A stretch of DNA of 64,000 nucleotides, taken from positions 3,037 to 67,036 of the forward strand of contig ASNI01000006.1 in the NCBI GenBank assembly GCA_000404785.1, written 5' to 3'. The position numbers and the translations under genes were made by a program. This DNA comes from Cloacimonetes bacterium SCGC AAA252-N17. Its GTDB lineage: Bacteria > Cloacimonadota > Cloacimonadia > JGIOTU-2. Shown piece by piece: positions 21,720 through 38,632 of the stretch (its first letter is position 1; the number at the start of each line of letters is the position of its first letter). The notes below the pieces were generated by a model. The model worked only from the letters and a program-made list of their open reading frames with translations. It had not been told where the DNA came from and did no database searches.

Positions 21720-22673
21720 TTGCAATACTTCACTTTGACTGTAGATACTGAAGCTGATAATGCATGGACTTCACCCGAGAAAATTGAGATGAAAAATTTC
21801 AAAGAGTTAATTCGTTTCCAAGAATTATGTGAGAAGTACAATATTATTCCGACATATTTACTAACATATGAATATGCTACATATAAACCTGCAATTGATT
21901 ATCTAAAACCGAAAGCTTATCAGAGAAAATGTGAAATTGGTCATCACCTACATGTTTGGACTACACCTCCCCTCCAGAAGGAACAGAAAGGTATTGATAT
22001 TGAATGGTTACATGCATATCAGTATGAATTACCAGACAATCTGTTTTACGATAAAGCAAATATGCTTTATAATACAATAGAAAAAAATTTTGGTTTAAAA
22101 CCAAAATCTCATAGAGCTGGTAGATGGGGAATTGATAATCGTACAATTGATTGGTTGGTCAACAAAAATTTTCTCGTAGATACTTCAGTTGTTCCAGGGA
22201 AAGATTATACTGATAGTAAGGGTGTTTTTAGTAGTGGACCAAATTTTCAAAATCAATCTAGTAATTTTTTTTTTTGGAAAACTAATAAAAGCAAAATACT
22301 TGAAGTTCCTGTATCAGTCTATAATAATTTTTTTATTTTTAATAAAGCCTTTATTAAAAATATTTATAAATTTATTCCCAATAATAAAAAAGGGAGTAAA
22401 CTATCCAACATTTCAATATTACGCTTAGATCCAGCTTATTCTTATTCTTTTTATAAAAATGCGATATCAGGAAAATTACAAAAACAATACATCGTAAATA
22501 TGATGCTTCATTCTTCAGAGCTTGCTCTTAATTGTAGTCCCAAATCAAAAATAATGAAATATTATAAAAAAAACTGGCTTGTAATTGAACACGTTTTTAG
22601 AATTGTGAGAAAACTTAAATTAATTTCATGTTCTTTATCTGAAATTTCATTATTATATAAGAAATATGAATAA
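21720..22673 (+). CDS. Polysaccharide deacetylase-like protein (WalW-like)
   Basis: FTLTVDTEAD, EIGHHLH.W, SHRAGRWG, VDTSV.P, LEVPVS, MLHSSEL. Confidence 0.8.
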   Translation: MQYFTLTVDTEADNAWTSPEKIEMKNFKELIRFQELCEKYNIIPTYLLTYEYATYKPAIDYLKPKAYQRKCEIGHHLHVWTTPPLQKEQKGIDIEWLHAYQYELPDNLFYDKANMLYNTIEKNFGLKPKSHRAGRWGIDNRTIDWLVNKNFLVDTSVVPGKDYTDSKGVFSSGPNFQNQSSNFFFWKTNKSKILEVPVSVYNNFFIFNKAFIKNIYKFIPNNKKGSKLSNISILRLDPAYSYSFYKNAISGKLQKQYIVNMMLHSSELALNCSPKSKIMKYYKKNWLVIEHVFRIVRKLKLISCSLSEISLLYKKYE

Positions 22674-22699: not shown

Positions 22700-24055
22700 T
22701 TGTCTTCTAATAAGGATTTCTTTTTAGCGTTATTTTTTATTTTAATTCTACTCGCTATAATTATAATATTTGCTCACTATGGAATATTAAATTATTTGTA
22801 TCTATTTTTACTAATTTTTTTTATTTTTTTGCTTATAATAAGACCTGAGTTAATAATTTATAGTTATTTAGTAATATTACCTACTAACGGAATTGTTCCC
22901 GCCAAATACAACTTTGTTTTGTTTTTGGGGCTTGATGATATAATAAGCATTCTGGTATTACTTTATTTAATTTTTTATCGAAATTTAAGAAACCCCAAAA
23001 AGAATGTTCTTCAAAAATATAATATTTCATTGATTATAATTATGATAGTAATATACTTTCTTACTAATATAAAAAATTCATATTTTAATATTTATAATGG
23101 GGATTATTTTACAACAATTAAAATTTTATTATCCCTAATACTAAAATATGTTCCTTTAATATATATTTTGGTTAATCTCAATCGTGAAGATGTTAAACTG
23201 TTAACTTGTGTAAGATATGGTATTTATTGTAGCATGATTTTTCTTGTTATTTGTCAGTTTATAACACCCTATTTAGGAGGATTAGATCTATTTACCATGG
23301 TTGATTCTGAATATGCTGGACTTGCTAAAAACGTTACTAATGTTGAAAGATTTGCTGGATTCTATAATGGAGATTCAAATAGCTTCGGGGCATTTTTAGT
23401 AATGAATATTGGATTCCTATTTCTACAATTAAATACAAAAAATACAAAAAAATATTTAATTTATTTTTTTATAGGTATTGCTGTATTAGGAGTTTTACAA
23501 ACGGCATCTAGATCTGCAGAAATTTCTTTAGTAATTATTACCTTAATGTTTTTATATAATAATAGAAGTAGTAAGAATTTTATTCAACTATTAATTCTTC
23601 TTCTATTAATTATTTTTAGTTTTGCTGGTTTTATTTCAAATCAAATATCAAGATTTCATAATGCATCATTCCAGCTTAATACTAATCTTGAAGGAAATAG
23701 AATAATGATCTGGGCAAATTATTTTAATTTTTTTAATATAAATCCTCAATATTTAATAACTGGTTCCCATGAAGAAATATATTTTTATGCAGCTCATAAT
23801 GTGTACATTCAAACGATATTCAATGTAGGTATTTTTCCTCTTTTATATATGTTATATATACTTTATAGAATAATTATTAATGTAATTAAGGAAAATAGAT
23901 ATTTGTTGTACATCATTATTCCATTTGTGATTATTACAATGTATGTGGGCCAAATGTCAGAATTTGCCTTTTTTGTTCTGTTAATCACAGTATCCATAGT
24001 TGATTTTAGAAGAAAAGTGAATTTGAATGTAAAACAAACAAAGGATGAAAGTTAA
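22700..24055 (+). CDS. wzy: O-antigen polymerase/ligase-family membrane protein (Wzy)
   Basis: Many TM helices; RFAG..GDSNSFG, TASRS, R..IW, AHNVY. Confidence 0.75.
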
Positions 24056-24056
24056 T

Positions 24057-25088
24057 ATGAAAAAAGCACTTATTACAGGAATTAGTGGCCAAGATGGTTC
24101 TTATTTAGCAGAATTATTACTAAATAAAGGTTACGAAGTACATGGAATTATTAGAAGGTCTAGTTTAGAAACTCGAACTAGGATTGATCATTTATACCAA
24201 GACCCTCACTTGAAAGGAAGGAAATTCTTTTTACATTATGGAGATATGACGGATTCTTCTGGATTATCACATCTTATTAAAGCCATATCACCCGACGAAA
24301 TTTATAATCTTGCAGCTCAAAGCCATGTAAGGGTATCTTTCGAGACGCCGGAATATACTGAAAACGTTGATGCCGCTGGAGCATTAAGGATATTAGAAGC
24401 AATAAGGACTCATGGATTTATAGGTAAAACAAAATATTACCAAGCATCAACGAGTGAATTATTTGGTAAAGTTAAAGAAGTCCCTCAAAAAGAAACTACT
24501 CCTTTCTATCCCAGAAGTCCATATGCAGCAGCAAAGATCTATTCCTATTGGATAACTGTTAATTATAGAGAAGCATATAATATATTTGCCACAAATGGAA
24601 TATTATTTAATCATGAATCACCTCGTAGAGGTGATAGTTTTGTAACTAAAAAAATTGTAAATTCAGTTGCAGGAATTGAAAAAGGTAAGTTAAAGAAATT
24701 CTATATGGGCAATATAAACTCGAAACGCGATTGGGGTTATGCGCCAGATTATGTTGATGCTATGTGGAGAATGCTGCAAACAGAATATCCACACGATATT
24801 GTTATTGCAACAGGAGAAACAAATACTGTTCGTGATTTTATAGAACGTGCTTTTAAATATGTTGATATTGAGATTGAATGGCAGGGAAATGGAGTTGATG
24901 AAAAAGGCATTAATCCTAAGAATGACGATGTTTTGCTAGAAATAGATCCTTGGTATTTTAGACCTACAGAAGTAGATATACTTGTTGGTGATGCATCAAA
25001 AGCAAAAAAAATATTAAATTGGGAACCCTCTGTTCGTTATGAAGAACTTATTGAAATTATGATGAAAGACGCATTAGAAACAACATAA
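24057..25088 (+). CDS. gmd: GDP-mannose 4,6-dehydratase
   Basis: [53 protein letters not shown]. Confidence 0.97.
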
Positions 25089-25122
25089 GGTAGATTTACA
25101 TCTGATAATTAAGGATTATCAA

Positions 25123-26229
25123 GTGAATAATAAATATTTCGAAATTCCGATAACCATTCCAGACCTTTCAGGAAATGAATACAAATACTTATGTGATGCT
25201 TTTCAATCAACTTGGATCTCTAGTAGTGGAGAATATATTAATAAATTTGAGAATAAATTTTCCAGTTTTTGCGAAAGTGATTATGGTATAGCTGTATCAA
25301 ACGGTACAGTTGCAATACACTTGGCTTTGGTTTCTCTAGGAATTAAATCAGGTGACGAGGTTATTGTTCCTGATCTCACTTTTGCTGCAACAATTAATGC
25401 AGTGTTACATGCTAACGCAATACCTGTTATAGTTGATATTGAGAAAGATAGCTGGTGTATATCTCCCGTAGAGATTGAAAAGGCAATTACTCCTAAAACC
25501 AAAGCTATAATTCCTGTACATCTATATGGGCAACCTGCAGATATGGATAACATCATGAAGATTGCAAAAGCAAATAATTTATTTGTTATCGAAGATTGTG
25601 CAGAAGCACATGGAGCAAAATTCAATAATCGCAAAGTAGGTTCTTTTGGAGATATTGGCTGTTACTCTTTTTTTGCGAACAAGATTATTACAACCGGTGA
25701 AGGTGGAATGTGTGTTACAAATAACCAGAAATATTATTCTAAAATGAGGAAACTTAGAGATCATGGGATGAGTAAAAACCAAAAATATTGGCATGATGAA
25801 ATCGGATTTAATTATAGGATGACAAATTTGCAAGCTGCAATTGGTGTTGCGCAACTTGAGCGAATCGAAGCAATATTAGAGGAAAAAAAAGCTCTTGAAG
25901 CAAGATATAGAAAAGTCCTTGATGTATGTGAAAATATTCGTTTTCAAGAAAATGATTTAAACGAAAGAGAAAAAATTACTTGGTTAGTATCAATATTGGT
26001 TAATGGTAATAGAGATAATTATTTAACCAATTTGCATGAGAAAGGAATTGATGCCAGACCATTTTTCTATCCTTTGAGTATAATGCCTCCATATAAAGAT
26101 TATTTATTCAGTAATAAAAATAGCGTTGAAATTTCACAAAAAGGTATAAATTTACCAACAAGCAAGAATGTAACTAATAGTATTCTTAAACAAGTTAAAC
26201 AGTTATTTCTGGAGTATCCAAATGATTAA
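25123..26229 (+). CDS. per: DegT-family aminotransferase, perosamine synthase-like
   Basis: SNGTVAIHLAL, VHLYGQP, EDCAEAHGA, SFFANKIITTGEGG; directly follows gmd. Confidence 0.8.
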   Translation: MNNKYFEIPITIPDLSGNEYKYLCDAFQSTWISSSGEYINKFENKFSSFCESDYGIAVSNGTVAIHLALVSLGIKSGDEVIVPDLTFAATINAVLHANAIPVIVDIEKDSWCISPVEIEKAITPKTKAIIPVHLYGQPADMDNIMKIAKANNLFVIEDCAEAHGAKFNNRKVGSFGDIGCYSFFANKIITTGEGGMCVTNNQKYYSKMRKLRDHGMSKNQKYWHDEIGFNYRMTNLQAAIGVAQLERIEAILEEKKALEARYRKVLDVCENIRFQENDLNEREKITWLVSILVNGNRDNYLTNLHEKGIDARPFFYPLSIMPPYKDYLFSNKNSVEISQKGINLPTSKNVTNSILKQVKQLFLEYPND

Positions 26230-26938
26230 TTCAAAAAGAGTACTTGCCCTTATCCCCGCGAGAGGAGGAAGTAAAGGTTTACCAGGTAAAAACATTAAAG
26301 TAATAAATGGAAAACCTCTAATCAACTGGACTATTAATACAGCTCTTAATACAAAAGAAATTGATAAAGTTATTGTCTCAACTGATGATAAAGCGATTGC
26401 TGACATTGCTAAAAAAGCAGGGGCATCTATTCCTTTTTTAAGACCAAAATATTTAGCACAAGATAATTCAGGTTCTGTGGACGTCTTATTACATGCGATT
26501 AATTATTTAGAGAGAAAAAATGAGGACTATGATTTGATTATGTTGTTAGAACCAACATCGCCTTTACGGAAAAAAGAAGATTTATCTTTAGCAATTAATA
26601 AATTCACTTCAAATTTTGAAAACTTTGACGGCATTGTATCCTTAGGGGAAATTCATTTAGAAAATCCTGTGATTACAAAGATTATCAAGAATGGATTTGT
26701 TTCACCATTCTTCGAATATAAATCAATATCGCAAAGACAGCAATACCCACGGGTTTTTTTCCCTTATGGTGTAATATATGCAGTAAAAATTGAATTACTG
26801 AAAAAAAATAAAACAATATATAATAAACACTCAATGCCATATATAATCGAAAGATGGCAAAACTATGAAATTGATGACTATTATGATTTTATTTGCATTG
26901 AACAAATACTTAAGTTAAAAGAAAAGGAAATATTGTGA
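26222..26938 (+). CDS. neuA: Acylneuraminate cytidylyltransferase (CMP-nonulosonate synthetase)
   Basis: LIPARGGSKGLPGKN, VSTDD, LEPTSPLR, EIDD. Confidence 0.9.
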   Translation: MINSKRVLALIPARGGSKGLPGKNIKVINGKPLINWTINTALNTKEIDKVIVSTDDKAIADIAKKAGASIPFLRPKYLAQDNSGSVDVLLHAINYLERKNEDYDLIMLLEPTSPLRKKEDLSLAINKFTSNFENFDGIVSLGEIHLENPVITKIIKNGFVSPFFEYKSISQRQQYPRVFFPYGVIYAVKIELLKKNKTIYNKHSMPYIIERWQNYEIDDYYDFICIEQILKLKEKEIL

Positions 26939-27924
26939 AATTTTTAGTAATTGGATTAGGCTCAATGGGTAGAAGACGGATTAGATGTTTGCAAGCACTT
27001 GGCTATAAAGATATTGTCGGTATTGATCCTAGGAATGATCGTCGATCAGAATCCCTATCTAATTATTCAATAGATTCCTACAGTACAATATCGGACATTA
27101 ATGTCTCAGATTTTGATATAATGATTATTTCAACACCTCCAGATATACATAAGACTTACTTGAAGATTGCCATCAAATACAATAAACCTACTTTTGTAGA
27201 AGCTGGGGTGATTTTGGATGATGCAATAACTATCTTGAATACTAATAGAAATGACACGTATATTGCTCCAAGTTGTACACTAAAATTTCATCCTCTTATA
27301 AAAGATTTGAAACATTTAATCAACTCTAAAAAATATGGAAAACTTTCAAATTTCACTTACCATTCTGGCAATTATCTGCCAGATTGGCATCCTTGGGAAA
27401 AAGTTTCTGATTTTTATGTTTCAAATAGAATAACTGGGGGGGCAAGAGAAATAGTACCGTTTGAATTGACTTGGTTGATTGACATATTTGAAAATCCTAT
27501 TGATTTGAAAGCTTATTTTCAGAAAACCATTAATATGGGTGCTGATATTGAAGACACGTATTTATTTCAGTTAAAATTTGTGGAGGGATTAGGATCAGTA
27601 ATTATAGACGTTACTTCTAGATTTAGCACAAGAAGCTTGATAGTAAATTTGGAAGAAGCGCAGATAAGATGGAATTGGGAAGAGAATAAATTAAAAGTTT
27701 ATGAAGCAGAAAATAGGAGATGGGTAGAGTATTATCAATATACCGGTGAAGCTGAAAAGGGTTATAATAAGAATATCATCGAGCAAATGTATATTGATGA
27801 AATTGCAGCTTTTTTACTAGGAATCAGCGATAAAAGTAAATTTCCTAATAGCTTAAATGATGACGTGAAAATTCTAAAAATACTCGAAAAAATTGAAAAA
27901 TCGGATGGAGGATTTAGCAGATGA
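26935..27924 (+). CDS. Gfo/Idh/MocA-family oxidoreductase
   Basis: LVIGLGSMGRR, ISTPP..H, YLPDWHPWE. Confidence 0.85.
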   Translation: MKFLVIGLGSMGRRRIRCLQALGYKDIVGIDPRNDRRSESLSNYSIDSYSTISDINVSDFDIMIISTPPDIHKTYLKIAIKYNKPTFVEAGVILDDAITILNTNRNDTYIAPSCTLKFHPLIKDLKHLINSKKYGKLSNFTYHSGNYLPDWHPWEKVSDFYVSNRITGGAREIVPFELTWLIDIFENPIDLKAYFQKTINMGADIEDTYLFQLKFVEGLGSVIIDVTSRFSTRSLIVNLEEAQIRWNWEENKLKVYEAENRRWVEYYQYTGEAEKGYNKNIIEQMYIDEIAAFLLGISDKSKFPNSLNDDVKILKILEKIEKSDGGFSR

Positions 27925-29213
27925 ACTATAGTGAAAAACTAAATAATTTAATACCAGGTGGAGCACATACTTATAGTAGAGGTGATGATCAATATCCATC
28001 TAATGCACCTAAAATATTAGCAAAAGGAAAAGGCTGTTATGTTTGGGATACAGAAGGTAACAAGTATCTCGATTATGGTATGGCGTTAAGAGCAAATACG
28101 ATAGGCTATTCATATGAACCCATAGATAATGCAGCTATTAAAGAAATACAAAATGGTAATAATTTAACGAGAGCGTCAATGATTGAATTAAAGGCTGCAG
28201 AAGTGATTACAGCATTAATCCCTTCTGCTGATATGGTTAAGTTTGCTAAAAACGGTTCAACTGCTACGTCAGCTGCGGTCAAATTGGCTCGAGCCTATAC
28301 TGGAAGGAAAATGATTGCACGCTGTGTTGACCATCCATTCTTTTCTTATGATGATTGGTTCATTGGTGACACACCTCTTATCAAGGGAATTCCTCAAGAG
28401 ATTTATAAATTAACACTAAATTTTCATTATAATGATCTACCTTCGTTGAAAAAACTATTTGACGAGTACCCAAATGAAATTGCATGTATTATTTTACAAC
28501 CAGCTGTAAACGAAAAACCTAAAGATGGTTTCTTGCACAAAGCAAAAGAGCTATGTCACCAAAATGGTACTCTATTCATATTGGACGAGATGATCACAGG
28601 TTTTAGATGGCATCTTAACGGAGCCGAATCCTATTATGATATCAAACCGGACCTCTCAACTTTTGGCAAAGGTATGGCAAACGGATTTTCCGTGGCAGCA
28701 CTTACTGGTAAAAGAGAGATTATGAATCTTGGCGGGATTAAAGAAGTTGGTAAAGAGAGAGTATTTCTAGTATCTACGACACATGGAGCTGAAATGTCTG
28801 GCCTGGGTGCATTCGTAAAAACTGTAGATTGTTACAAAGAACTAAAAGTGGTAGAACACCTCTGGGATTATGGTAGAAAAATGATAGATGGCATGAACAA
28901 TATTGCCAAAGATTTTGGTTTAGAAAACTATTTCATTGCTAAAGGTTATCCCTGCTCCCCTGAGTATTGTACCTTAGATCAATCGGGCAATAATTCTCTA
29001 GATTTTAGAACACTTTTTTCTCAGGAAATGATAAAAAATGGTGTGCTGATTCCCTGGATTGCTCTTAGTTACGCTCACAATGAGCTTGAACTTGAACTTA
29101 CATTTGAAGCTACCAGGAAATCGTTGCAGATTTACGAACAAGCTCTTGATAAAGGATTAAAAAGATATTTAGTTGGTGATTCTATAAAACCAGTTTTCAG
29201 GAAATATAATTGA
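27921..29213 (+). CDS. Class III PLP aminotransferase (glutamate-1-semialdehyde aminomutase-like)
   Basis: KGCYVWD..YLDY, FAKNGSTATSAAVKLARAYTG, DEMITGFR, TFGKGMANG. Confidence 0.88.
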   Translation: MNYSEKLNNLIPGGAHTYSRGDDQYPSNAPKILAKGKGCYVWDTEGNKYLDYGMALRANTIGYSYEPIDNAAIKEIQNGNNLTRASMIELKAAEVITALIPSADMVKFAKNGSTATSAAVKLARAYTGRKMIARCVDHPFFSYDDWFIGDTPLIKGIPQEIYKLTLNFHYNDLPSLKKLFDEYPNEIACIILQPAVNEKPKDGFLHKAKELCHQNGTLFILDEMITGFRWHLNGAESYYDIKPDLSTFGKGMANGFSVAALTGKREIMNLGGIKEVGKERVFLVSTTHGAEMSGLGAFVKTVDCYKELKVVEHLWDYGRKMIDGMNNIAKDFGLENYFIAKGYPCSPEYCTLDQSGNNSLDFRTLFSQEMIKNGVLIPWIALSYAHNELELELTFEATRKSLQIYEQALDKGLKRYLVGDSIKPVFRKYN

Positions 29214-29998
29214 TAAAAATTGCTTTAGTATCATTGAATCATGTATGGGAAAACAAACAAAAAAACAAGCAGAATTGTATTACATATATAAAAAAAGCTG
29301 CAGATCAAAAGGCAGAAATTGTAATATTCCCGGAAATGACTTTAACTGGATTTTCCATGAAGAGCCGTGAAATAGCAGAGGATATAGATGGATCAGAAAC
29401 AATTGAATTCTTTCGGAAAATGGCCTTGGAATATTTTATAACAATAGTATTTGGTATAGTACTGTTTTCCTCAGAAAATCCCACAAACAATCTATTTGCT
29501 ATATCTCCCGAAGGGAAAATACTGGTTAAATATACAAAGATTCATCCTTTTACATATTCATCGGAAGATAAGTATTATACCAAGGGGAATGAGCTTGCAG
29601 AGTGTACGATCGGAGGAATTACTTTTGGATATGCAATTTGCTATGATCTTCGTTTTCCAGAACTTTATCAAGCTCTATCCAAACAATCTAAAATAATAAT
29701 AACAATTGCTAACTGGCCAAAAGCTAGAGTTGGCCACTGGAAAGTTCTTCTTAGGGCAAGGGCAATAGAAAACCAGTCTGTTTGCATTGGCGTAAATAGA
29801 GTTGGTGAAGATGGAAATGGTATCGAATATGTTAAAAGCTCTTTCGTTTTTGATCAATCCGGAAACATGATACTTCCAGAATTCTCTGAAAATGAATTTG
29901 ATGTTTTCGATATTGATGTAGCAAAAGTTAATGAAGAAAGAGATAGATTTCCAATAAAAAATGATAGGCGTATAGATTTGTATAAAAAGGTACTATAA
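29210..29998 (+). CDS. Carbon-nitrogen hydrolase (nitrilase family)
   Basis: E-K-C triad: FPEM, YTKIH, ICYDLRFPE. Confidence 0.9.
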   Translation: MIKIALVSLNHVWENKQKNKQNCITYIKKAADQKAEIVIFPEMTLTGFSMKSREIAEDIDGSETIEFFRKMALEYFITIVFGIVLFSSENPTNNLFAISPEGKILVKYTKIHPFTYSSEDKYYTKGNELAECTIGGITFGYAICYDLRFPELYQALSKQSKIIITIANWPKARVGHWKVLLRARAIENQSVCIGVNRVGEDGNGIEYVKSSFVFDQSGNMILPEFSENEFDVFDIDVAKVNEERDRFPIKNDRRIDLYKKVL

Positions 29999-30792
29999 TG
30001 ATAGATGGAAAGATAGTCATTGTAACTGGGGGAGCAGGTTTATTAGGATTTGAATTTGTCAAAGCCATAGTAAATAATGGCGGGACAGCAATAATTGGAG
30101 ATATAAACGAAGATGTTGGTAAACAGCGGCTGCAGGAAATATCGCAATCATCTGGCAAAAACAAAGCAGAGTTCCTGAAATTAGATGTTACTTCTAAATC
30201 TTCCATTAATGCTATGATTGAATTCGTTAAAAACAAATATGGTAAAATCGATACCTGGGTAAATAATGCTTATGCCAAGATTAAAAGTTTTAATATTGAG
30301 AAGAAGAGAGAATATTCAAACTCTTTTTTTGACGTAGATGTAGATGATTTATGTGAGAGCGTGAGTTTAAATATTGGTTCATATTTTCTCTGTTCTCAAC
30401 TCATTGCCAAATATTTTATTGATCAGGGTTATGGAAATATTGTGAATATTTCTTCAATATATGGAGTAATCTCTCCCAGATTTGAAATATATTCCGATAC
30501 TAAAATGACTATGCCTGTTGATTATGCTTTGAATAAATCTTCAATGATCCATTTTACTCGTTATCTAGCAAAATTTTTAAGAGATAAAAACATTATAGTC
30601 AATACAATAAGTCCGGGAGGGATATTTAATAATCAACCCGTATCTTTTGTTAATGCATATAACCAATTTGCTCTAAACAAAGGTATGTTAGATAAAGATG
30701 ATATTAGCGGAACTTTAATCTTTCTTATTTCTGATTATTCAAAATTTGTGAATGGACAAAATATTATAGTTGATGATGGTTGGACATTATGA
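29998..30792 (+). CDS. SDR oxidoreductase (PtmA-like)
   Basis: VTGGAGLLG, VNNA, SSIYG, Y..NK, N.ISPGG. Confidence 0.85.
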   Translation: MIDGKIVIVTGGAGLLGFEFVKAIVNNGGTAIIGDINEDVGKQRLQEISQSSGKNKAEFLKLDVTSKSSINAMIEFVKNKYGKIDTWVNNAYAKIKSFNIEKKREYSNSFFDVDVDDLCESVSLNIGSYFLCSQLIAKYFIDQGYGNIVNISSIYGVISPRFEIYSDTKMTMPVDYALNKSSMIHFTRYLAKFLRDKNIIVNTISPGGIFNNQPVSFVNAYNQFALNKGMLDKDDISGTLIFLISDYSKFVNGQNIIVDDGWTL

Positions 30793-31841
30793 TAAGTTTT
30801 AATAAAAAGATTCAAATAGGTAACAAAGAAATTTCTAATGATTCTCCCGTGTTCATTATTGCTGAAGCTGGAGTAAACCATAATGGCGATATTCATGTTG
30901 CAAAACAACTTATTGACGTTGCTGTGGAATCTGGAGTTGATGCAGTAAAATTTCAAGCTTTCAAGACAGAAAACTTGATTTTAGCTAATGTGGAAAAAGC
31001 AGATTATCAGAAAAAAACTACAGGAAGCAGTGAATCACAATACAACATGCTGAAAAAACTGGAGATTTCTAAACAACAAACTAGAGAATTAATGGATTAT
31101 TGTATTAAGAATAGAATCCTATTCTTATCAACTCCATTCGATGAAACAAGTCTTTTGGAACTGGAATCATTGGGAATATATGCTTACAAGATTGCATCTA
31201 CCGATACAACCAACTTGCCATTTCTAAAAAAGATTGCAAAGTTAGGAAAACCAATGATTTTATCATCTGGCATGAGTTATATGTCGGAGGTAAAAATGGC
31301 TCTCGAAGAAATTTATCCATATAATAAAAATGTGATATTACTGCAATGTACTGCCAACTATCCAATAAAAAATAACGAGGCAAATTTAAATGTATTGAAG
31401 ACGTATCATAATGAACTTGATATTCTGCTGGGATATTCCGACCATTCGGAAGGTCTTGGCGCATCACCATATGCTGTACCGTTAGGAGCTAAAGTAGTTG
31501 AGAAACATTTTACTTTAGATATACAAAATGAAGGACCTGATCACCTGGCTTCACTTTCTCCACAAGAACTAAAGCTGTATGTAAAGGAAATCAGAAAGGT
31601 AGAGGAGTATCTTGGTTCAAAGATAAAAAAACCATCTTTTGAAGAAATCGAAACGAGAAGATCTCTGCAGAAATGTTTGGTTGCAGCCAGACGTATAAAA
31701 AAGGGTGAGTTGTTTAGTTTGGATAATATTGTAGCAAAAAGAACTAATGGGAATGGAATTTCTCCGATATATTATAAAAGTATTATAGGTAAACCAGCTA
31801 AATACAATATCTCTAAAAATGAGATAATCTATGAAAAATGA
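30789..31841 (+). CDS. neuB: Nonulosonic acid synthase (NeuB family)
   Basis: IIAEAGVNHNGD, AVKFQ, GYSDHSEG, EKHFTLD; C-terminal AFP-like domain. Confidence 0.95.
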   Translation: MISFNKKIQIGNKEISNDSPVFIIAEAGVNHNGDIHVAKQLIDVAVESGVDAVKFQAFKTENLILANVEKADYQKKTTGSSESQYNMLKKLEISKQQTRELMDYCIKNRILFLSTPFDETSLLELESLGIYAYKIASTDTTNLPFLKKIAKLGKPMILSSGMSYMSEVKMALEEIYPYNKNVILLQCTANYPIKNNEANLNVLKTYHNELDILLGYSDHSEGLGASPYAVPLGAKVVEKHFTLDIQNEGPDHLASLSPQELKLYVKEIRKVEEYLGSKIKKPSFEEIETRRSLQKCLVAARRIKKGELFSLDNIVAKRTNGNGISPIYYKSIIGKPAKYNISKNEIIYEK

Positions 31842-32445
31842 AATAATAATTATCGGTGCTGGTGGACATGTAACATCAGTTTTAAACTTGCTGAAGTACA
31901 CCGAATATACTGTAATTGGAATATATGACAACTCTTATCAGGAAGGAAAAAATGAATTGATCAATGCAATTCCGGTTAAAGGTAGAATTGATTCGATTCC
32001 TTCAAGATATCAGATTTTATTATCGATTGGTGATAACCATGAAAGAAGAAGACTTTTTCACAGGTTTTCAAATCAAATCTTAGCAGATAACCTTATACAT
32101 GAGCTATCATTTATAGAAGATCATATTGAGATGGGAATAGCAAATCAGATCCTAGCAAATTCGTACTTAAATGCAAATACAGTTATCGGCAATAATAATA
32201 TTATCAATTCCAGTTCAACCATAGAGCATGAAGTCAGAATTGGTTCTCATAACCATATATCAGTGAATACTACGATTTGTGGAAGAGTTACGATCGGTGA
32301 TTCATGTTTTATCGGAGCCGGTACTGTAATCATAGATAAAATAAATATTTGTAGCGATGTAACTATTGGAGCAGGATCTGTTGTTATCAGAAGTATTGAA
32401 GAACCAGGTGTATATGTTGGCAATCCATTGAGGAAAATCAAGTGA
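31831..32445 (+). CDS. NeuD/PglD-family acetyltransferase
   Basis: IIGAGGH; hexapeptide repeats; IEHE..IG..HI; YVGNP. Confidence 0.88.
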   Translation: MKNEIIIIGAGGHVTSVLNLLKYTEYTVIGIYDNSYQEGKNELINAIPVKGRIDSIPSRYQILLSIGDNHERRRLFHRFSNQILADNLIHELSFIEDHIEMGIANQILANSYLNANTVIGNNNIINSSSTIEHEVRIGSHNHISVNTTICGRVTIGDSCFIGAGTVIIDKINICSDVTIGAGSVVIRSIEEPGVYVGNPLRKIK

Positions 32446-33299
32446 TTTTTGTTTCATCATCTTGTGTTAAACATTCAAAAATTTCTCATTCTGTCAAAGA
32501 ATTAGCAGAGCATGGTTTCAAAAATATAGAACTTTCTGGTGGAACAGATTACTATAAAAATTATATTAAAGATCTAATAGATTTGAAGAAAAAGTACAAT
32601 CTTAATTATTTTATTCATAATTATTTTCCTCCACCTGAACAGCATTTTGTCTTGAACTTAGCTTCCTTAAACCAAACGATATTTGATAATACAATCAACC
32701 ATTTCAAGATATCTATAGATCTTGCCAAGAAACTGGATATTGACAGAATAGGTGTTCACGCTGGATTCTATATTGATCCAAATGTGAATGAATTAGGGCA
32801 TAATATAAGCAAGACCACAATAAACAATAGACGTAAGGCTATCGATAGATTCATAAATGGTTATTCTAGTTTGAAAAGATATGGAGATGATGTAATAATC
32901 TATGTTGAAAATAATGTGATTTCTAAAAGAAATTTTAAAACTTATAAGACAAATCCATTTATGTTAACAAATCTTGCAGATTATCATGAACTGAAAGACA
33001 GGATAGATTTTCCACTTTTATTAGACGTAGCTCATCTAAAGGTAAGTTGCAAAACTTTAGATTTAGGTTTCGAGTATGAATTGAGCGAATTGCTAGAACA
33101 TTCTGATTATATACATATTAGCGATAATAATGGTGAAAGTGACACTAATAATCCAATAGATGAAAATAGTTATATGTTGCAGTATCTAAAAACAAGTAGA
33201 TTAGACAATAAGAAAATTACTTTAGAAATTTACGATGATATTTATAAGTTAAGGAAAAGTTTTAAAATTATTGCGAATATGGAGGATTTTATTAAGTGA
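32442..33299 (+). CDS. Sugar-phosphate isomerase/epimerase-family TIM barrel (AP endonuclease 2 type)
   Basis: IELSGG, HNYFPP, YVENN, LLDVAHLK, YIHISDN, LEIY. Confidence 0.8.
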   Translation: MIFVSSSCVKHSKISHSVKELAEHGFKNIELSGGTDYYKNYIKDLIDLKKKYNLNYFIHNYFPPPEQHFVLNLASLNQTIFDNTINHFKISIDLAKKLDIDRIGVHAGFYIDPNVNELGHNISKTTINNRRKAIDRFINGYSSLKRYGDDVIIYVENNVISKRNFKTYKTNPFMLTNLADYHELKDRIDFPLLLDVAHLKVSCKTLDLGFEYELSELLEHSDYIHISDNNGESDTNNPIDENSYMLQYLKTSRLDNKKITLEIYDDIYKLRKSFKIIANMEDFIK

Positions 33300-34432
33300 C
33301 TGAAAAAAAGAATGGAGTTCTTTTTATAATTTTTTCACTAGGAAATGGTGGCACTGAAAGAATGATGATGAATGTATTGAATAAATGTGAGTTACCTCAC
33401 AATGATAAAATCCTATATTTGTATAGTTATATTGATAATAATTCTTATGAAAAATTATTAAACAGTAATATTACAATATACAAACATCCGCGAACCCAAA
33501 AAAAATATAAACATTTTGTCCAAATCAGTAAATTAATAAAAATTATTAAAAATCATAATGTAGAAACAATTGTATGTTTCTCTTCAAAATCTGCATTATT
33601 GGCTGTAATTATAAAAAAAATATTCTTCTTTAAAAAGATAAAAGTAATTTCCCGACTCGGAGCTTTTTTCTTAAAGCAATACAGCGATACGAAAAACATG
33701 ATAAAATATCACTTTTGGACTCATGTTACCCTTCATTTCTCCTATAGATATTCAGATAAAGTAATTTGTCTTACAAATGCTATGAAGAATGATTTAGTTA
33801 GTAAATCAGAAAAACTATTTGATAAAATTGTCATAATAAATAATTATATTGATACTGATAGAATTGAATTAGCACTTAAAAATCCCTTACCAGTAAAATA
33901 TCAAAACTACTTTATTGCGGTGGGAAGATTAGAGAAACAGAAAAATTATTTTGGTTTGATTGAAGCTTTTAATATAATAAAAGACGAAATTAAAGAGAAT
34001 TTATTAATTCTAGGAGACGGAGGTCACAAAACTATTTTAGAAGATTATATCAATCAAATCCAATGCTCGAATCGGATAAAATTATTAGGGTTTAAAGAAA
34101 ATCCATATAAGTACATAAGTAATGCTAATTTTTATATTCTTAATTCTTATTTTGAAGGGATGTCAAATTCATTGCTAGAGGCAATGATCTGTAAAATTCC
34201 AATTATTGTTACTAATCATCCAGGTGTAGAAGATGTGATAACTAATGAAAAAAATGGATTAATCGTACCAATGGGTGATGATGCAACTCTTGCTAAAACT
34301 ATTGTAAGATTATCAAATGACAAAGAATTACAATCAAATCTAGCTAAAGCGAGTTTTAAATCTGCAGTTAGGTTTACAAATACAATAGAGAAATATAGTG
34401 AATTAATTGATGAATTAAGAGATAACAAATGA
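33296..34432 (+). CDS. Glycosyltransferase family 4
   Basis: GGTERMM, VGRLEKQKN, SYFEGMSNSLLEAM. Confidence 0.9.
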   Translation: MTEKKNGVLFIIFSLGNGGTERMMMNVLNKCELPHNDKILYLYSYIDNNSYEKLLNSNITIYKHPRTQKKYKHFVQISKLIKIIKNHNVETIVCFSSKSALLAVIIKKIFFFKKIKVISRLGAFFLKQYSDTKNMIKYHFWTHVTLHFSYRYSDKVICLTNAMKNDLVSKSEKLFDKIVIINNYIDTDRIELALKNPLPVKYQNYFIAVGRLEKQKNYFGLIEAFNIIKDEIKENLLILGDGGHKTILEDYINQIQCSNRIKLLGFKENPYKYISNANFYILNSYFEGMSNSLLEAMICKIPIIVTNHPGVEDVITNEKNGLIVPMGDDATLAKTIVRLSNDKELQSNLAKASFKSAVRFTNTIEKYSELIDELRDNK

Positions 34433-35643
34433 AGATAGGTTTTTTTATAGTCAGCTTAAATGCTTATCATGCCCACATAAAGCCCTTTATTGATTACTTA
34501 TCAGATGCAGATTATTCTTTTGTTATTTTTCACTTAAATAATTTATATACACCAGAATTTTCTATTGATGAATTGCCATGTTCAACAGTTAGCTTGTCAA
34601 AGATGTGTAATATAAAAAAAATATTATGTTATCATTCAATAGATTTTATGGTTTTTATAAATCCAGGTAGTTTATTCGACCTCTTTTTGATTGCCTGTTG
34701 TAAACAATTGAATATTACAACTATATATTATCAGCATGGAATTCAATTAGATTTTTCTTCGTTTAATCCAAACTCTTTAAATAGAAATAAAACGTTAAAG
34801 GCTTTTCTAATAAGAATAAAAAAATACTTTTATATCTATTTTTTTATTCTTAATAATATTTTTTTTTTTAAAAGAGCAAAAAATATTTTAAAAACTGTAA
34901 CAATCAAAACATTACATTTACTAAATAAAAAAAATAAGAATGTTTTACCCAAATATGGTCTTAAATTCATGCATATAGATTATGCATTTGTATATGGAAA
35001 ATTAGATAAAAAATATTTAATTTCAAGTATGGATATGTGTAATAAAAATATAATTTTATCAGGATATCCATTTATTCAACAATCTGAAAAGCTTAAGTTT
35101 TTAAGTAGGATTAAATATATTTTATATATTTCTTCTGGATTAAGAAAAGCTGGTGTCATTCCAATTGCTGAAAAAGAAGAAAGGGAGTTTTACTTAAATA
35201 TAAATGAAATTGCATTTCAAAACAATTTCAAACTAATAATTAAAATTCATCCACAAGAAAACATAAAGTTATTTGAAAAAAATTTTGAGAATAATAAAAA
35301 CATAATTGTTTATAAACATAAAAACTTAGCTGATTTGACTATTAATTCTGAATGCGTATTAGGAGACTATTCAACAGCCTTATTTTACGCAATTAAATAT
35401 TACAAACCCATTTTGATCATTAGAAATAGATTTTTTCATACTTATCCTTTTGATTTAACTAAATATGATATAGGCAAAAAAATAGATTTAACTAATTTAG
35501 ATATAGAATTAAAAAGATTAGGTTTAACTAGATATGAGAAAAAGAAATATCAAGATTTTCTACATAATCACTTACTAAGTCCATTTAGTGAAACATTATA
35601 TAAGATTTTTTATGATCATTTAGAAAAAATAAGAAAGGCATGA
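34429..35643 (+). CDS. GT-B-fold capsule protein, candidate nonulosonate transferase
   Basis: YYQHG, SGYP, KIHPQE, DYSTALFYA motifs resemble sialyl-/glycerophosphotransferase families. Confidence 0.55.
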   Translation: MKIGFFIVSLNAYHAHIKPFIDYLSDADYSFVIFHLNNLYTPEFSIDELPCSTVSLSKMCNIKKILCYHSIDFMVFINPGSLFDLFLIACCKQLNITTIYYQHGIQLDFSSFNPNSLNRNKTLKAFLIRIKKYFYIYFFILNNIFFFKRAKNILKTVTIKTLHLLNKKNKNVLPKYGLKFMHIDYAFVYGKLDKKYLISSMDMCNKNIILSGYPFIQQSEKLKFLSRIKYILYISSGLRKAGVIPIAEKEEREFYLNINEIAFQNNFKLIIKIHPQENIKLFEKNFENNKNIIVYKHKNLADLTINSECVLGDYSTALFYAIKYYKPILIIRNRFFHTYPFDLTKYDIGKKIDLTNLDIELKRLGLTRYEKKKYQDFLHNHLLSPFSETLYKIFYDHLEKIRKA

Positions 35644-36968
35644 AAATTAGGTTAATTGAATTTGTTATGAAGCACGTATTCATTAAACTATTAGATTTAC
35701 TTATTTCTACAAATATTTTGAAATGGTATAAACTAATAGCTGAATTGCGAGGAAAAAAAACATCTGAAATTTGCGACTGGCAATTCAAAAGATTAAAATT
35801 TTTATTAAAACATGCATACAATAATACAGTCTATTATCGAAGACTATTTGACAATTTAAATTTGCAACCCAATGATATCCTTTCTTTAAATGATTTAAAT
35901 AAAATTCCACCTCTTTCAAAACAAGACATAAAAAAGAATTTTGAAAACATAAAAGCTCGAAATATAAAAAAAATTCCTCATTTTTTCAAATCTACGGGTG
36001 GTTCTACTGGAGATCCATTGCAGTACATTTTAGATAGAGATTCGTGGAGTTTTATTTTTGCTAATCGATTACAAGCATGGGAAAAAATAGGATATACTAT
36101 TGGGCAAAGATATGTTGCTTTAGGGAGCTCTTCATTGTTTCCAATAAATAAACGATCAATTAAAAATCGACTATATAATTTACTTATTGGAAGAATTCCT
36201 GTTAATGCTGTTAATTTATCAGACCAAAAATTAGAAATTATTGTAACTTTGTTACAGAAAAGAAAAATTAGATACATTTTCGGATATTCCTCAGCATTAT
36301 ATTTGCTTGCAAAATACGTTATTACTAATAATATATATCTTAAACACATAAAAGGTTGCATATCAACATCAGAGATTTTATTGGAAAATTATAGGGAAAC
36401 AATTATTCAAGCATTTAATTGTAAAATAATTGATGCTTACGGAGCTTATGATGGAGGCATTAACGCATACAAAATCTTTGATGATTTTTATAAAGTGGGT
36501 TATAATTGTTATATTGAAACAAAGAAAACAAATATTGAAAAAATAGACAATGAATTGTTAACAACAGATCTATTAAATTTTGCATTTCCGTTTATTAGAT
36601 ATAGTATAGGGGATGAAGCAATAATATCGAATAAAGGGATTAAAAATTACAAAGGTCAAACCATAACTAAGCTGATGGGACGAACACCTGATATTATTAA
36701 ACTTAGTAATGGAAACATTCTTACAGGACCTGGATTTACAATACTATTTAAAGATCTCAATGTTGATGCTTATAGGATAGTACAAAAAACTGAATTAGAA
36801 ATAACTTGTCAGATATTAGTAAATAAAAGTTTTGTAAAAAAGGAAGAAATCTTGATTTTGAATACATTAAAAAAACATGCGGGAAAGGAATGTATTATTA
36901 ATATTGAATATGTTAAAGATTTTAAGATATTAGATAGTGGTAAATTAGGGTATTTTATTTCAAATTAA
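35640..36968 (+). CDS. Phenylacetate-CoA ligase-like protein (CapK family)
   Basis: AY.NTVYYR, STGGSTGDP, TSE.L, DAYG..DGG, FPFIRYSIGD, GR. Confidence 0.85.
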   Translation: MKIRLIEFVMKHVFIKLLDLLISTNILKWYKLIAELRGKKTSEICDWQFKRLKFLLKHAYNNTVYYRRLFDNLNLQPNDILSLNDLNKIPPLSKQDIKKNFENIKARNIKKIPHFFKSTGGSTGDPLQYILDRDSWSFIFANRLQAWEKIGYTIGQRYVALGSSSLFPINKRSIKNRLYNLLIGRIPVNAVNLSDQKLEIIVTLLQKRKIRYIFGYSSALYLLAKYVITNNIYLKHIKGCISTSEILLENYRETIIQAFNCKIIDAYGAYDGGINAYKIFDDFYKVGYNCYIETKKTNIEKIDNELLTTDLLNFAFPFIRYSIGDEAIISNKGIKNYKGQTITKLMGRTPDIIKLSNGNILTGPGFTILFKDLNVDAYRIVQKTELEITCQILVNKSFVKKEEILILNTLKKHAGKECIINIEYVKDFKILDSGKLGYFISN

Positions 36969-37077
36969 ATTGAGAAAATCTTAGAATTTATCAGGAATTT
37001 TTACTTGATAAGAATCTATTTGTTAGAGTTTATTAATAGAGCCTGTCCAATTATGGAGTAGTATTTACTTAGTACCA

Positions 37078-37602
37078 ATGAAAATAATAAGCATGTTTTT
37101 ATATTACTTAATTTTTTGCAAACTTCCCAGTAGCTATTTCCCTTTTGGCAAAGTGTTTAACAATTTAAGAATATTTTTTCTCAAGAATTTTGTTAATATT
37201 GGAAAATTTAATAAAATACAAAGTAGAGTATATTTAGGTGATGGATCAGATGTGTTTATAGGTAGTAATTGTCAAATTAATGAGAATGTTAAATTGGATA
37301 ATGTTAAAATTGGAAATTACGTTATGATTTCTCCTGGGGTTACAATTTTGGGTAAATTGCATAAAACGGATAATGTAGATATCCCGATGGTAAAACAAGG
37401 TCAGTTGAAAGCAGAACAAACGATAATTGGTAATGATGTATGGATTGGTACGAATGCAATATTGATGCCTGGGATAAAAATAGGTGATGGTGTAATAGTT
37501 GCAGCTGGTGCAGTTGTTACAAAAGATTGTGAAGCTTTTTCCGTTTATGCTGGCGTTCCAGCGAAACTAATAAAGAAAAGAATACTAAATAATGAAAAAT
37601 AA
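37078..37602 (+). CDS. Hexapeptide-repeat O-acyltransferase
   Basis: IGNDVWIGTNAILMPGIKIG..VAAGAVVTKD..YAGVPA. Confidence 0.88.
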   Translation: MKIISMFLYYLIFCKLPSSYFPFGKVFNNLRIFFLKNFVNIGKFNKIQSRVYLGDGSDVFIGSNCQINENVKLDNVKIGNYVMISPGVTILGKLHKTDNVDIPMVKQGQLKAEQTIIGNDVWIGTNAILMPGIKIGDGVIVAAGAVVTKDCEAFSVYAGVPAKLIKKRILNNEK

Positions 37603-38632
37603 AATTTGGTTTGATTTAGATAATTTACCTCATGTTTCTCTTTTTCGTCCGGTTTTCGAGGAATTAGAAACACGAAATATTAAATATCTCGTAACAGCAA
37701 GGGATTTTAATCATACATTGGAACAACTTAAGTATTGGAATATTAATCATACTGCTATTGGCTGTCATGGAGGAAAGAATAAGTTTAAAAAGATATTAAA
37801 CTTGTTTGAAAGGTCATATCACTTAAAAAGGTATATCAAAAGTTTTGATAATATTAGTTTAGCTGTAAGCCACGGATCAAGAACACAATTAATTGCAGCT
37901 AAACTAATGGGAATTAATTCTATTGTTATGATGGATTATGAATATACTGAAACAAAAATATTTAATTATTTATCAACGTATATGCTTATTCCAAAATTTA
38001 TTCCAAAACATAGACTTTCTTCGGTTGGTATTAATCTTAAGAAAGTAATTAGATATAATGGTTTTAAAGAGCAAATATATTTAAATAATTTTAAGCCGGA
38101 TAAAAATTTTAGAGATCAAATTAATATTTCAGATGAAGCAATATTAGTTGTTATAAGACCGCCTGCTTTAGCAGGTAATTATCATGATCCTAAAAGTGAA
38201 GAATTGTTGATTAGTGGATTGAATTATTTTTCAAATATTGAAAATACTATTTGTTTAATTTTAAGTCGTACTTCTGAGGATAAAGATTTCATTTTATCCC
38301 AAATTGCTACTAGTAATAAAATTAGATTCTTGGACAAACAGGTTGATGGACTCCAACTTCTTTATTCAGCTGATATTACTGTAAGCGGTGGTGGAACCAT
38401 GAATAGAGAGTCAGCGCTTTTAGGAACAGAATCTTACAGTATATTTACTGGCAGAAGACCGTATTTGGATGAATATCTTGAAAAGCAAGGGAAATTAACA
38501 TTTATCAATAAACCCGATGATTTTTATAATATTCATATAAAAAGAGATGGGGGAAAGAAATTTTTCAAAAATAGCATTCAATTAAATTTAACCAAAGAAA
38601 TTGTTGATATAATTATAGAGAGAATGGATTAA
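37592..38632 (+). CDS. DUF354-family protein (GT-B/epimerase-like fold)
   Basis: IWFDL.N.PHV.LF, TARD, SHGS, DYEY, GGTMNRE.ALLG. Confidence 0.8.
   Translation: MKNKIWFDLDNLPHVSLFRPVFEELETRNIKYLVTARDFNHTLEQLKYWNINHTAIGCHGGKNKFKKILNLFERSYHLKRYIKSFDNISLAVSHGSRTQLIAAKLMGINSIVMMDYEYTETKIFNYLSTYMLIPKFIPKHRLSSVGINLKKVIRYNGFKEQIYLNNFKPDKNFRDQINISDEAILVVIRPPALAGNYHDPKSEELLISGLNYFSNIENTICLILSRTSEDKDFILSQIATSNKIRFLDKQVDGLQLLYSADITVSGGGTMNRESALLGTESYSIFTGRRPYLDEYLEKQGKLTFINKPDDFYNIHIKRDGGKKFFKNSIQLNLTKEIVDIIIERMD

Follow-up and report, generated by a model that had tools for sequence, protein, structure and literature searches.

A Cloacimonetes operon that probably directs the synthesis of an undescribed, CMP-activated nonulosonic acid from GDP-mannose via perosamine

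An operon located in a stretch of 64,000 nucleotides from Cloacimonetes bacterium SCGC AAA252-N17 (contig ASNI01000006.1, positions 3,037 to 67,036 of the forward strand; this whole stretch is called the window, and positions are counted from its first letter) probably builds a previously undescribed nonulosonic acid, activated with cytidine monophosphate (CMP), from guanosine diphosphate (GDP)-mannose via perosamine and furnishes it with an extra amine. This reading is drawn from gene content, from a comparison of about 250 related loci and from a search of the genome assembly. Nonulosonic acids, including the sialic, legionaminic (Leg) and pseudaminic (Pse) acids, shape the recognition of bacterial surfaces by hosts, phages and immune lectins. 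To our knowledge, all described bacterial routes to these sugars start from an N-acetylhexosamine nucleotide and need an enzyme of the NeuC/LegG/PseG type.

The operon is part of a polysaccharide locus of the Wzx/Wzy type, which extends over about 35 kb on the + strand (about 10.2-46 kb of the window) and also encodes a Wzx-like flippase, a Wzy-like polymerase, glycosyltransferases and a PglC-like initiating transferase. Ten translationally coupled genes (24045-33299, + strand) are followed by two glycosyltransferase genes. All genes that a first-pass annotation had listed (gmd, per, neuA, a Gfo oxidoreductase, a class III aminotransferase, a nitrilase, a short-chain dehydrogenase/reductase (SDR), neuB, neuD and a TIM-barrel gene) are indeed present and lie on the + strand:

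24045-25088, + strand: Gmd, GDP-mannose 4,6-dehydratase (equivalog TIGR01472, 546.6 bits against a cut-off of 415; LegB model 109 bits)
25123-26229, + strand: DegT aminotransferase, GDP-perosamine-synthase-like (PF01041, 397 bits; TIGR04181 (LegC), 371 bits with a cut-off of 420)
26222-26938, + strand: CMP-nonulosonate synthetase of the NeuA/LegF/ElaB type (PF02348 (CTP_transf_3), 91 bits; PseF model 159 bits with a cut-off of 205)
26935-27924, + strand: Gfo/Idh/MocA oxidoreductase of the PtmF/ElaA type (PF01408, PF22725)
27921-29213, + strand: class III (HemL-like) aminotransferase dependent on pyridoxal phosphate, here called AT3 (PF00202; NCBIfam PRK06209, 682 bits)
29210-29998, + strand: nitrilase-superfamily amidase (CN_hydrolase; PF00795, 130 bits; PRK10438, 133 bits, below cut-off; deaminated-glutathione amidase)
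29998-30792, + strand: SDR of the PtmA/ElaC type (PRK09186, 315 bits against a cut-off of 255; PtmA model 244 bits with a cut-off of 350)
30780-31841, + strand: NeuB, nonulosonic acid synthase (TIGR03569, 406 bits against 399.65; PseI model 251 bits)
31831-32445, + strand: N-acetyltransferase of the NeuD/PglD/PerB type (TIGR03570, 186 bits against 160.8)
32442-33299, + strand: endonuclease-IV-like metallo-TIM barrel (AP_endonuc_2; PF01261, 53.7 bits)
33296-34432, + strand: glycosyltransferase of family GT4 (PF00534, 117 bits; 4-base overlap with each neighbour)
34429-35643, + strand: candidate nonulosonate transferase, polysialyltransferase-like (PF07388 (alpha-2,8-polysialyltransferase), 26.3 bits against 23.3; weak match to TIGR04396)

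From the Wzy-like gene to the CapK-like gene downstream, neighbouring genes overlap by 1-13 bases at every junction but one, the 34-base gap between gmd and the DegT gene. Such overlaps point to translational coupling, and we therefore regard the genes as a single operon and not as a chance neighbourhood. Judged by comparative gene content, the operon is composed of two recurrent modules which are interleaved, a core module (NeuB, NeuD, TIM barrel, DegT, NeuA and sometimes Gmd) and an add-on module (NeuA, Gfo, AT3, amidase and SDR), in a genome that has no PtmE, LegB or NeuC. The presence of both modules in one operon of such a genome bears on the function of the add-on. Neither module, as far as sequence relatives tell, is special to this genome, as relatives of each are found in hundreds of species.

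The proposed pathway is as follows. Gmd would convert GDP-mannose into GDP-4-keto-6-deoxymannose, the perosamine-synthase-like DegT protein would form GDP-perosamine and NeuD would N-acetylate it to GDP-N-acetylperosamine, from which the metal-dependent TIM barrel would remove the nucleotide to yield free N-acetylperosamine. Since GDP-perosamine already has the manno configuration, no 2-epimerisation and hence no NeuC/LegG would be needed. With phosphoenolpyruvate, NeuB would then turn N-acetylperosamine into 7-acetamido-3,7,9-trideoxy-D-glycero-D-galacto-non-2-ulosonic acid, that is, a 7-acetamido-7,9-dideoxy derivative of 2-keto-3-deoxynononic acid (Kdn) with a hydroxyl at C5, the carbons mapping as in the conversion of N-acetylmannosamine (ManNAc) to N-acetylneuraminic acid (Neu5Ac) or of mannose to Kdn. 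After activation to the CMP derivative by NeuA, a dehydrogenase would oxidise a secondary hydroxyl of the CMP-sugar, most likely that at C8 by analogy with the ElaA/ElaC enzymes described below, AT3 would transaminate the resulting ketone, glutamine supplying the amino group, and the amidase would hydrolyse the 2-oxoglutaramate, thereby making the amination irreversible. The polysialyltransferase-like enzyme would transfer the sugar into the Wzx/Wzy repeat unit. The fully specified version, in which the product is CMP-7-acetamido-8-amino-3,7,8,9-tetradeoxy-non-2-ulosonic acid with a C5 hydroxyl, the TIM barrel is a new GDP-sugar hydrolase and a class III transaminase together with an omega-amidase installs the C8 amine, is offered tentatively, as a possible rather than a probable outcome.

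The core module was defined by a scan with an alignment of the TIM barrel, which returned 112 relatives; locus counts were taken from the best 80. Both NeuB and DegT accompany the TIM barrel in 74 of these 80 loci, NeuA in 63 and NeuD in 55, and the gene order is fixed as NeuB, NeuD, TIM barrel, DegT, Gmd where present, and NeuA; any further gene family is found in at most 27. The loci come from many phyla and contain neither LegB nor NeuC. A true Gmd (at least 50 % identity) is encoded inside the locus in 16 of the 80, often between DegT and NeuA. Carrier genomes without such a local gene encode a Gmd scoring above the cut-off elsewhere in 43 of 50 cases, against 5 of 14 control genomes (Fisher p = 4e-4), and 38 of the 50 have no NeuC anywhere in the genome. 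The closest relatives of the DegT protein (60-63 % identity) belong to loci of Lachnospiraceae and Flavobacteriales, which also contain the closest NeuB (60-63 %) and TIM-barrel (38-45 %) relatives. These loci contain no dehydratase and no NeuC, and the four genomes with the closest DegT all encode Gmd (4/4) and never NeuC (0/4).

The individual enzymes of the core agree with a perosamine intermediate. The best solved relatives of the DegT protein are 7b0m (320 bits) and the Caulobacter GDP-perosamine synthetase (3bn1, 3dr4 and 3dr7; 315-318 bits), the next class following at 222 bits. Its identity is 57-68 % to the DegT proteins of most TIM-linked modules and 28-38 % to most of those in canonical Leg loci. 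In most TIM-module loci the DegT protein carries an N-terminal CBS domain (PF00571) and has about 470 residues (median 469), whereas that of the window has 368 and is without this domain, which otherwise marks PtmE in Leg loci. The top solved relative of NeuD is the perosamine N-acetyltransferase PerB (4ea7, 85.4 bits), practically tied with PglD and VioB (84.5-84.8 bits). In a FastTree phylogeny of 131 NeuB sequences, of the kind that the first-pass annotation had called for, the synthase of the window falls into a clade of 65 rows, consisting of itself and 64 TIM-linked NeuBs (SH-like support 98), and lies apart from the NeuC-linked LegI synthases.

A natural triple-fusion protein of NeuB, NeuD and DegT also exists (P0224). 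Long NeuB fusions are numerous, with NeuC, cytidylyltransferase, Gfo and SDR epimerase/dehydratase partners, and others join NeuB to a flavoprotein resembling UDP-galactopyranose mutase or amine oxidase (about 795 residues) or to FemAB-like acyltransferase domains (about 688 residues). No NeuB-TIM fusion was found: PF01261 occurs in none of the best 120 long NeuB relatives, the best 150 representatives of the TIM family are all stand-alone proteins, and no long TIM relative was found. One Lachnospiraceae (Kineothrix) locus has two radical-SAM genes, one of them with a SPASM domain, between DegT and NeuB, and neither Gfo nor AT3; in place of the NAD-dependent oxidoreductases, this pair may serve as an anaerobic, BtrN-like alcohol dehydrogenase.

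The genes of the known routes were searched for in the whole assembly (2.41 Mb, 137 contigs, 89.6 % complete). No NeuC/LegG was found in it, the best score to TIGR03568 being 91.9 bits with a cut-off of 235.9. Its only two Epimerase_2 genes (on contigs C39 and C135) encode non-hydrolysing WecB proteins (TIGR00236, 345 and 271 bits; TIGR03568, 92 and 57 bits). The best LegB score in the genome is 179.7 bits (TIGR04180, cut-off 475), no protein of the assembly reaches the cut-off of the PseB model, and no PtmE-like CBS-nucleotidyltransferase is present in it, the top score against a canonical-locus PtmE being 29.9 bits. The earlier statement that neither NeuC/LegG nor LegB/PseB can be recognised in the window thus extends to the whole 89.6 %-complete assembly, and the genome search for neuC and legB proposed along with it yielded the two WecB proteins and generic SDR epimerases only. 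NeuB is present in a single copy, that of the window. The only match to a ManC-like guanylyltransferase lies on another contig (C15:24447-25505, 339.8 bits, below the cut-off for the bifunctional GMP_PMI model, with one TAA within the match); a supply of GDP-mannose is plausible because of this gene.

In the conserved module every step but nucleotide removal has its enzyme and every enzyme but the TIM barrel has its step, and for this reason the one was assigned to the other: by elimination, we infer that the TIM barrel is the best candidate for a GDP-sugar hydrolase standing in for NeuC/LegG/PseG. The protein matches no NCBIfam family, including Nfo, and a sequence search of the PDB gave one weak match, MJ1311. 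Its family comprises 762 representative clusters (50 % identity) at E < 1e-30, which are annotated at best as 'sugar phosphate isomerase/epimerase'. An alignment of 62 sequences shows the invariant residues H59, N72, H106, E156, N157, N158, D195, H198, H225, S227, N229, D234 and E262. With the AlphaFold model (predicted local distance difference test, pLDDT, 95.8), Foldseek ranked MJ1311 (3wqo) first with a template modelling (TM) score of 0.73, endonuclease IV at ranks 3-4, and then ketose 3-epimerases and isomerases. As endonuclease IV and ketose epimerases/isomerases are both among these matches, the fold alone does not decide the chemistry.

More can be learned from a comparison with the genome's own endonuclease IV (Nfo; TIGR00587, 364 bits). 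When the TIM family was aligned with this protein by hhalign, seven metal-ligand motifs lined up at a weak probability (FHAGF with FHPG, ENN with LE, DVAH with DTCH, HISD with HLND, D.N with DRH, TLE with LET and FVLNL with YLINL, TIM family and Nfo respectively), with Asn in the TIM family at one His position of Nfo. These motifs, which we take to be the carriers of the metal ligands in E. coli endonuclease IV, suggest that the TIM family keeps more of a multi-metal phosphoesterase site than of the four-residue site of the epimerases. Another candidate for the missing hydrolase, the DUF354 protein (37592-38632), was set aside because it is present in 1 of the 80 TIM-module loci; it could still act in this strain.

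The add-on module was studied by a scan of species-representative genomes with AT3, whereby relatives in more than 593 species were obtained, mostly in nonulosonate loci. Context was taken from the best 80 (52-70 % identical, many phyla), in which the neighbouring open reading frames were clustered and the clusters named. The usual context consists of a LegB-like gene, legC (DegT), neuD, neuB, neuC, ptmE, neuA, optionally gfo, AT3, optionally nit, and an SDR gene, which by its gene complement corresponds to a canonical legionaminic locus of the GDP type whose NeuA/Gfo/SDR group has taken up AT3 and an amidase. Unlike this usual locus, the window has no NeuC and no PtmE, and a true Gmd occupies the LegB-like position. 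In 56 of 74 loci, AT3 has a dehydrogenase (Gfo, SDR or both) no more than 5 kb away; among the 80, orthologues of Gfo (39-60 % identity) are found beside AT3 in 33, an SDR in 54 and an amidase next to it in 20. No cytidylyltransferase-AT3 fusion occurs among these 80 loci. AT3 is also present in about 7 TIM-module loci without PtmE. Among cultured carriers, Pseudotenacibaculum haliotis KCTC 52127, Alkalimonas amylolytica CGMCC 1.3430 and Vibrio sp. Of14-4 have the core module alone, Lachnospiraceae bacterium COE1 has both, and Flavobacterium cerinum, Chitinophaga rupis DSM 21039, Bdellovibrio sp. HCB-110 and Vibrio tapetis subsp. quintayensis combine a Leg locus with the add-on. A distant branch of the family (52-54 % identity) is represented by four loci in which AT3 lies beside a PtmE-like nucleotidyltransferase, RmlC and a dehydratase; as they have no NeuB within 10 kb, the AT3 family also occurs outside nonulosonate loci.

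The module can be compared with ElaB (CTP-transferase), ElaA (Gfo) and ElaC (SDR) of Acinetobacter baumannii KL49 and Vibrio vulnificus, which are proposed to convert CMP-5,7-di-N-acetyllegionaminic acid (CMP-Leg5Ac7Ac) into CMP-8-epi-Leg5Ac7Ac (PMC13656337). ElaA is proposed to oxidise the C8 hydroxyl of CMP-Leg5Ac7Ac and ElaC to reduce the 8-keto group to the 8-epimer (PMC13656337), on the basis of crystal structures, docking and mutants, and it is by the ela genes that 8-epi-Leg loci differ from Leg loci (PMC13656337, PMC5595891). By analogy, Gfo is predicted to oxidise a hydroxyl to a ketone and AT3 to transaminate the keto intermediate; the insertion of the aminotransferase between Gfo and SDR suggests such a transamination. 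The nitrilase-family protein, whose closest resemblance, below cut-off, is to amidases of the YafV type and to deaminated-glutathione amidases, is predicted to be an omega-amidase that hydrolyses the 2-oxoglutaramate arising from a glutamine-dependent transamination, and its optional occurrence fits a helper role. One add-on could serve both types of locus, since the C8 hydroxyl, the C4 hydroxyl and the 7-acetamido-9-deoxy tail are common to the legionaminic and the predicted perosamine-derived acids. Amination at C5, which would turn a 5-hydroxy sugar into Leg, is less likely because the same cassette also occurs in canonical Leg loci, whose sugar already has a nitrogen at C5; we keep it within the alternative of precursor amination discussed below.

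The first-pass annotation had suggested a perosamine-derived or an additionally aminated nonulosonic acid. For the former speak the Per-like DegT, the PerB-like NeuD, the TIM-linked NeuB clade and carrier genomes that mostly have Gmd and lack NeuC, and for the latter AT3 and the amidase between Gfo and SDR, enzymes of ElaA/ElaC-like type and neighbourhood. From these patterns, both probably apply at once.

Several points weigh against this interpretation. The order of the steps, the stereochemistry and the position of the new amine are predictions from genomics, and about 10 % of the genome is missing from the assembly. The fold search, with the uncharacterised MJ1311 as top match, leaves the choice between endonuclease IV and ketose 3-epimerases undecided, and the hhalign probability for the TIM family and Nfo is 4.5 %, a value which is low because one side of the comparison is a single sequence. 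The TIM barrel could thus be an epimerase or isomerase, the hydrolase being another protein. The likeness to ElaA/ElaC is one of enzyme type and gene neighbourhood, and the SDR, retained alongside Gfo and the aminotransferase, is not accounted for by the scheme. NeuA of the window is up to 63 % identical to NeuA proteins beside Gfo/AT3 in diacetamido (Leg) loci, a likeness that would suit a Leg-like substrate no less than a 5-hydroxy one. Finally, AT3 is associated with PtmE in 40 of 51 fully flanked loci, of which 9 have no NeuB nearby, so that AT3 might play a part in precursor supply.

The last two points lead to an alternative that we consider unlikely but worth serious attention, namely that Gfo, AT3, the amidase and the SDR aminate a six-carbon precursor, at the sugar-phosphate level or at C2 of the GDP-sugar, so that the end product would be a 5,7-diamino acid of legionaminic type made by a new route from GDP-mannose. 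Besides the AT3-PtmE association and the resemblance of NeuA to those of diacetamido-sugar loci, a second acetyltransferase gene (37078-37602) would suit this scheme, and the role proposed for PtmA and PtmF in Campylobacter lies, as reported in PMC4481668, in the segment of the Leg pathway that forms GDP-N-acetylglucosamine. However, the cassette almost always contains or touches a cytidylyltransferase, PtmE is lacking both in this genome and in the roughly seven TIM loci that bear AT3, and Acinetobacter 8-epi-Leg clusters are set apart from Leg clusters by just the Gfo/SDR (ela) genes (PMC5595891, PMC13656337), all of which speaks against this alternative.

It is rather improbable that the operon serves two unrelated sugars, with Gmd, DegT and NeuD making GDP-N-acetylperosamine for the repeat unit and NeuB, NeuA and the redox genes belonging to an ordinary Leg/Neu pathway whose front end (LegB, LegG/NeuC and PtmE) lies in the unassembled 10 %. 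Gmd with a Per-like DegT and a PerB-like NeuD is the known trio for GDP-N-acetylperosamine, as in Caulobacter, the assembly is in 137 contigs and 89.6 % complete, canonical Leg loci hold the nearest relatives of NeuA, Gfo, AT3 and SDR, and NeuB passes a model of the NeuB/LegI type. Yet the NeuB/NeuD/TIM/DegT/NeuA set recurs in 74 of the 80 loci from many phyla with no LegB or NeuC in the locus, and NeuC is absent genome-wide from 38 of 50 carriers and from all four closest genomes. In addition, NeuB of the window belongs to the TIM-linked clade and not to the NeuC-linked LegI, and the neuD gene adjoins the genes for NeuB and the TIM barrel and not that for DegT.

Least of all do we expect that the add-on merely epimerises, as ElaABC does, with the HemL-like protein being an aminomutase or acting on another substrate so that no extra sugar amine arises: the annotation name of its family is glutamate-1-semialdehyde 2,1-aminomutase (NCBIfam PRK06209, 682 bits), its nearest solved relatives are HemL enzymes and Gfo with SDR alone would suffice (PMC13656337), but these relatives score a low 164 bits against the 682 bits of its own family, the HemL equivalog TIGR00713 gives 198.9 bits where its cut-off is 527.3, the gene lies in glycan rather than tetrapyrrole operons, in more than 590 species between a cytidylyltransferase and a dehydrogenase, and a nitrilase-family amidase often follows, which is sensible for a glutamine-dependent transamination.

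Some further features of the locus may be mentioned. A T11 tract (34859-34869) is located inside the polysialyltransferase-like gene and a second one (22265-22275) inside an unannotated open reading frame (21720-22673); both are in frame in the assembly, and from their sequence both tracts could be slipped-strand switches for phase variation. Downstream of the operon (35640-38632) follow a CapK/PaaK-like adenylating enzyme, a WbbJ-like hexapeptide acyltransferase and the DUF354 protein, which is GT-B-like. Five other loci also have a homologue of the WbbJ-like acyltransferase downstream of their AT3 cassette, and this enzyme could acylate the predicted new amine.

In the literature we found no paper which links perosamine or Gmd with nonulosonate synthesis, none that describes a TIM barrel or a HemL-like aminotransferase in such a role, and none on either module. 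If the interpretation is correct, the route from GDP-mannose via perosamine would add an unreported core sugar with a C5 hydroxyl, an N-acyl group at C7 and a 9-deoxy end, and a new enzyme activity would be assigned to a TIM-barrel family that is both large (762 clusters at 50 % identity) and uncharacterised. Surveys which score NeuC, LegB or PseB would then under-count or mis-type nonulosonate producers. Those relying on mass only would miss an N-acetylated 7,8-diamino sugar (C13H22N2O8), as it is isobaric with Leg5Ac7Ac and Pse5Ac7Ac. The new amine could also be the anchor for the acyl or amino-acid ligases of the locus (the CapK-like enzyme at 35640 and an ATP-grasp/glutamate-mutase cassette at 14780-19495).

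The add-on, found in more than 590 species and annotated as HemL, would in that case be the genetic basis of 8-amino nonulosonic acids. That such chemistry exists in nature follows from the O-antigen of Tenacibaculum maritimum, which contains an 8-amino-3,5,7,8,9-pentadeoxy-nonulosonic acid (PMC3210612), and the same add-on would explain the genetic origin of this sugar. No Tenacibaculum record was obtained when a Flavobacterium AT3 served as the seed of a scan, and a paper on the O-antigen cluster (PMC9796276) gives no link between that sugar and the cassette.

Among the known systems, the closest in overall logic is the CMP-legionaminic pathway of Campylobacter jejuni (LegB/C/H/G/I/F with PtmE/F/A). 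Both use GDP-linked precursors and share the succession of a 4,6-dehydratase, a C4 aminotransferase, a NeuD-type acetyltransferase, nucleotide removal, a NeuB-type synthase and a cytidylyltransferase, beside which genes for a Gfo protein (PtmF) and an SDR (PtmA) are located. The window, however, encodes a true Gmd acting on GDP-mannose instead of LegB, its genome has a conserved endonuclease-IV-like TIM barrel in place of LegG/NeuC and PtmE, a class III aminotransferase and an amidase are added, and the predicted product bears a hydroxyl and not an acetamido group at C5. The system therefore departs from the canonical Leg pathway in four defining features, namely LegB, LegG, PtmE and the synthase clade. 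With the GDP-N-acetylperosamine pathway of Caulobacter crescentus (Gmd, Per and PerB) it shares Gmd, and its DegT and NeuD proteins have Per (318 bits) and PerB (85 bits) as nearest solved relatives; the synteny of these genes with those for NeuB, NeuA and the TIM barrel suggests that here the amino sugar is an intermediate for a nine-carbon acid and not a glycosyl donor.

Like ElaABC, the operon has adjacent genes for a CTP-transferase, a Gfo/Idh/MocA protein and an SDR within a nonulosonate locus (26222-27924 and 29998-30792), but with the class III aminotransferase and the amidase between Gfo and SDR, so that the keto group is predicted to be aminated rather than, or besides being, reduced again. 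Neither Gfo (at E <= 1e-5) nor the SDR (at E <= 1e-30) had a match in a search of solved structures. The TIM barrel has the same fold as Nfo, MJ1311 and the ketose 3-epimerases (TM 0.6-0.73), and its His/Glu/Asp motifs match those of Nfo one by one. It resembles Nfo without being a member of that family, and occurs with NeuB in 74 of 80 loci; its putative reaction is a phosphodiester or sugar-nucleotide hydrolysis. The formation of 8-amino-Kdo (Kdo, 3-deoxy-D-manno-oct-2-ulosonic acid) in Shewanella, to which the first-pass annotation had drawn a parallel, holds as an analogy in chemistry, since there too a hydroxyl of a 3-deoxy-ulosonic acid is converted via a keto or aldehyde group into an amine, by the oxidase KdnB, which is of the iron alcohol dehydrogenase type, and the transaminase KdnA. 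The parallel does not extend to the enzymes, as KdnA is of the DegT type (5k8b is among the relatives of the window's DegT) and not of class III, and the sugar acted upon has eight carbons and a primary alcohol.

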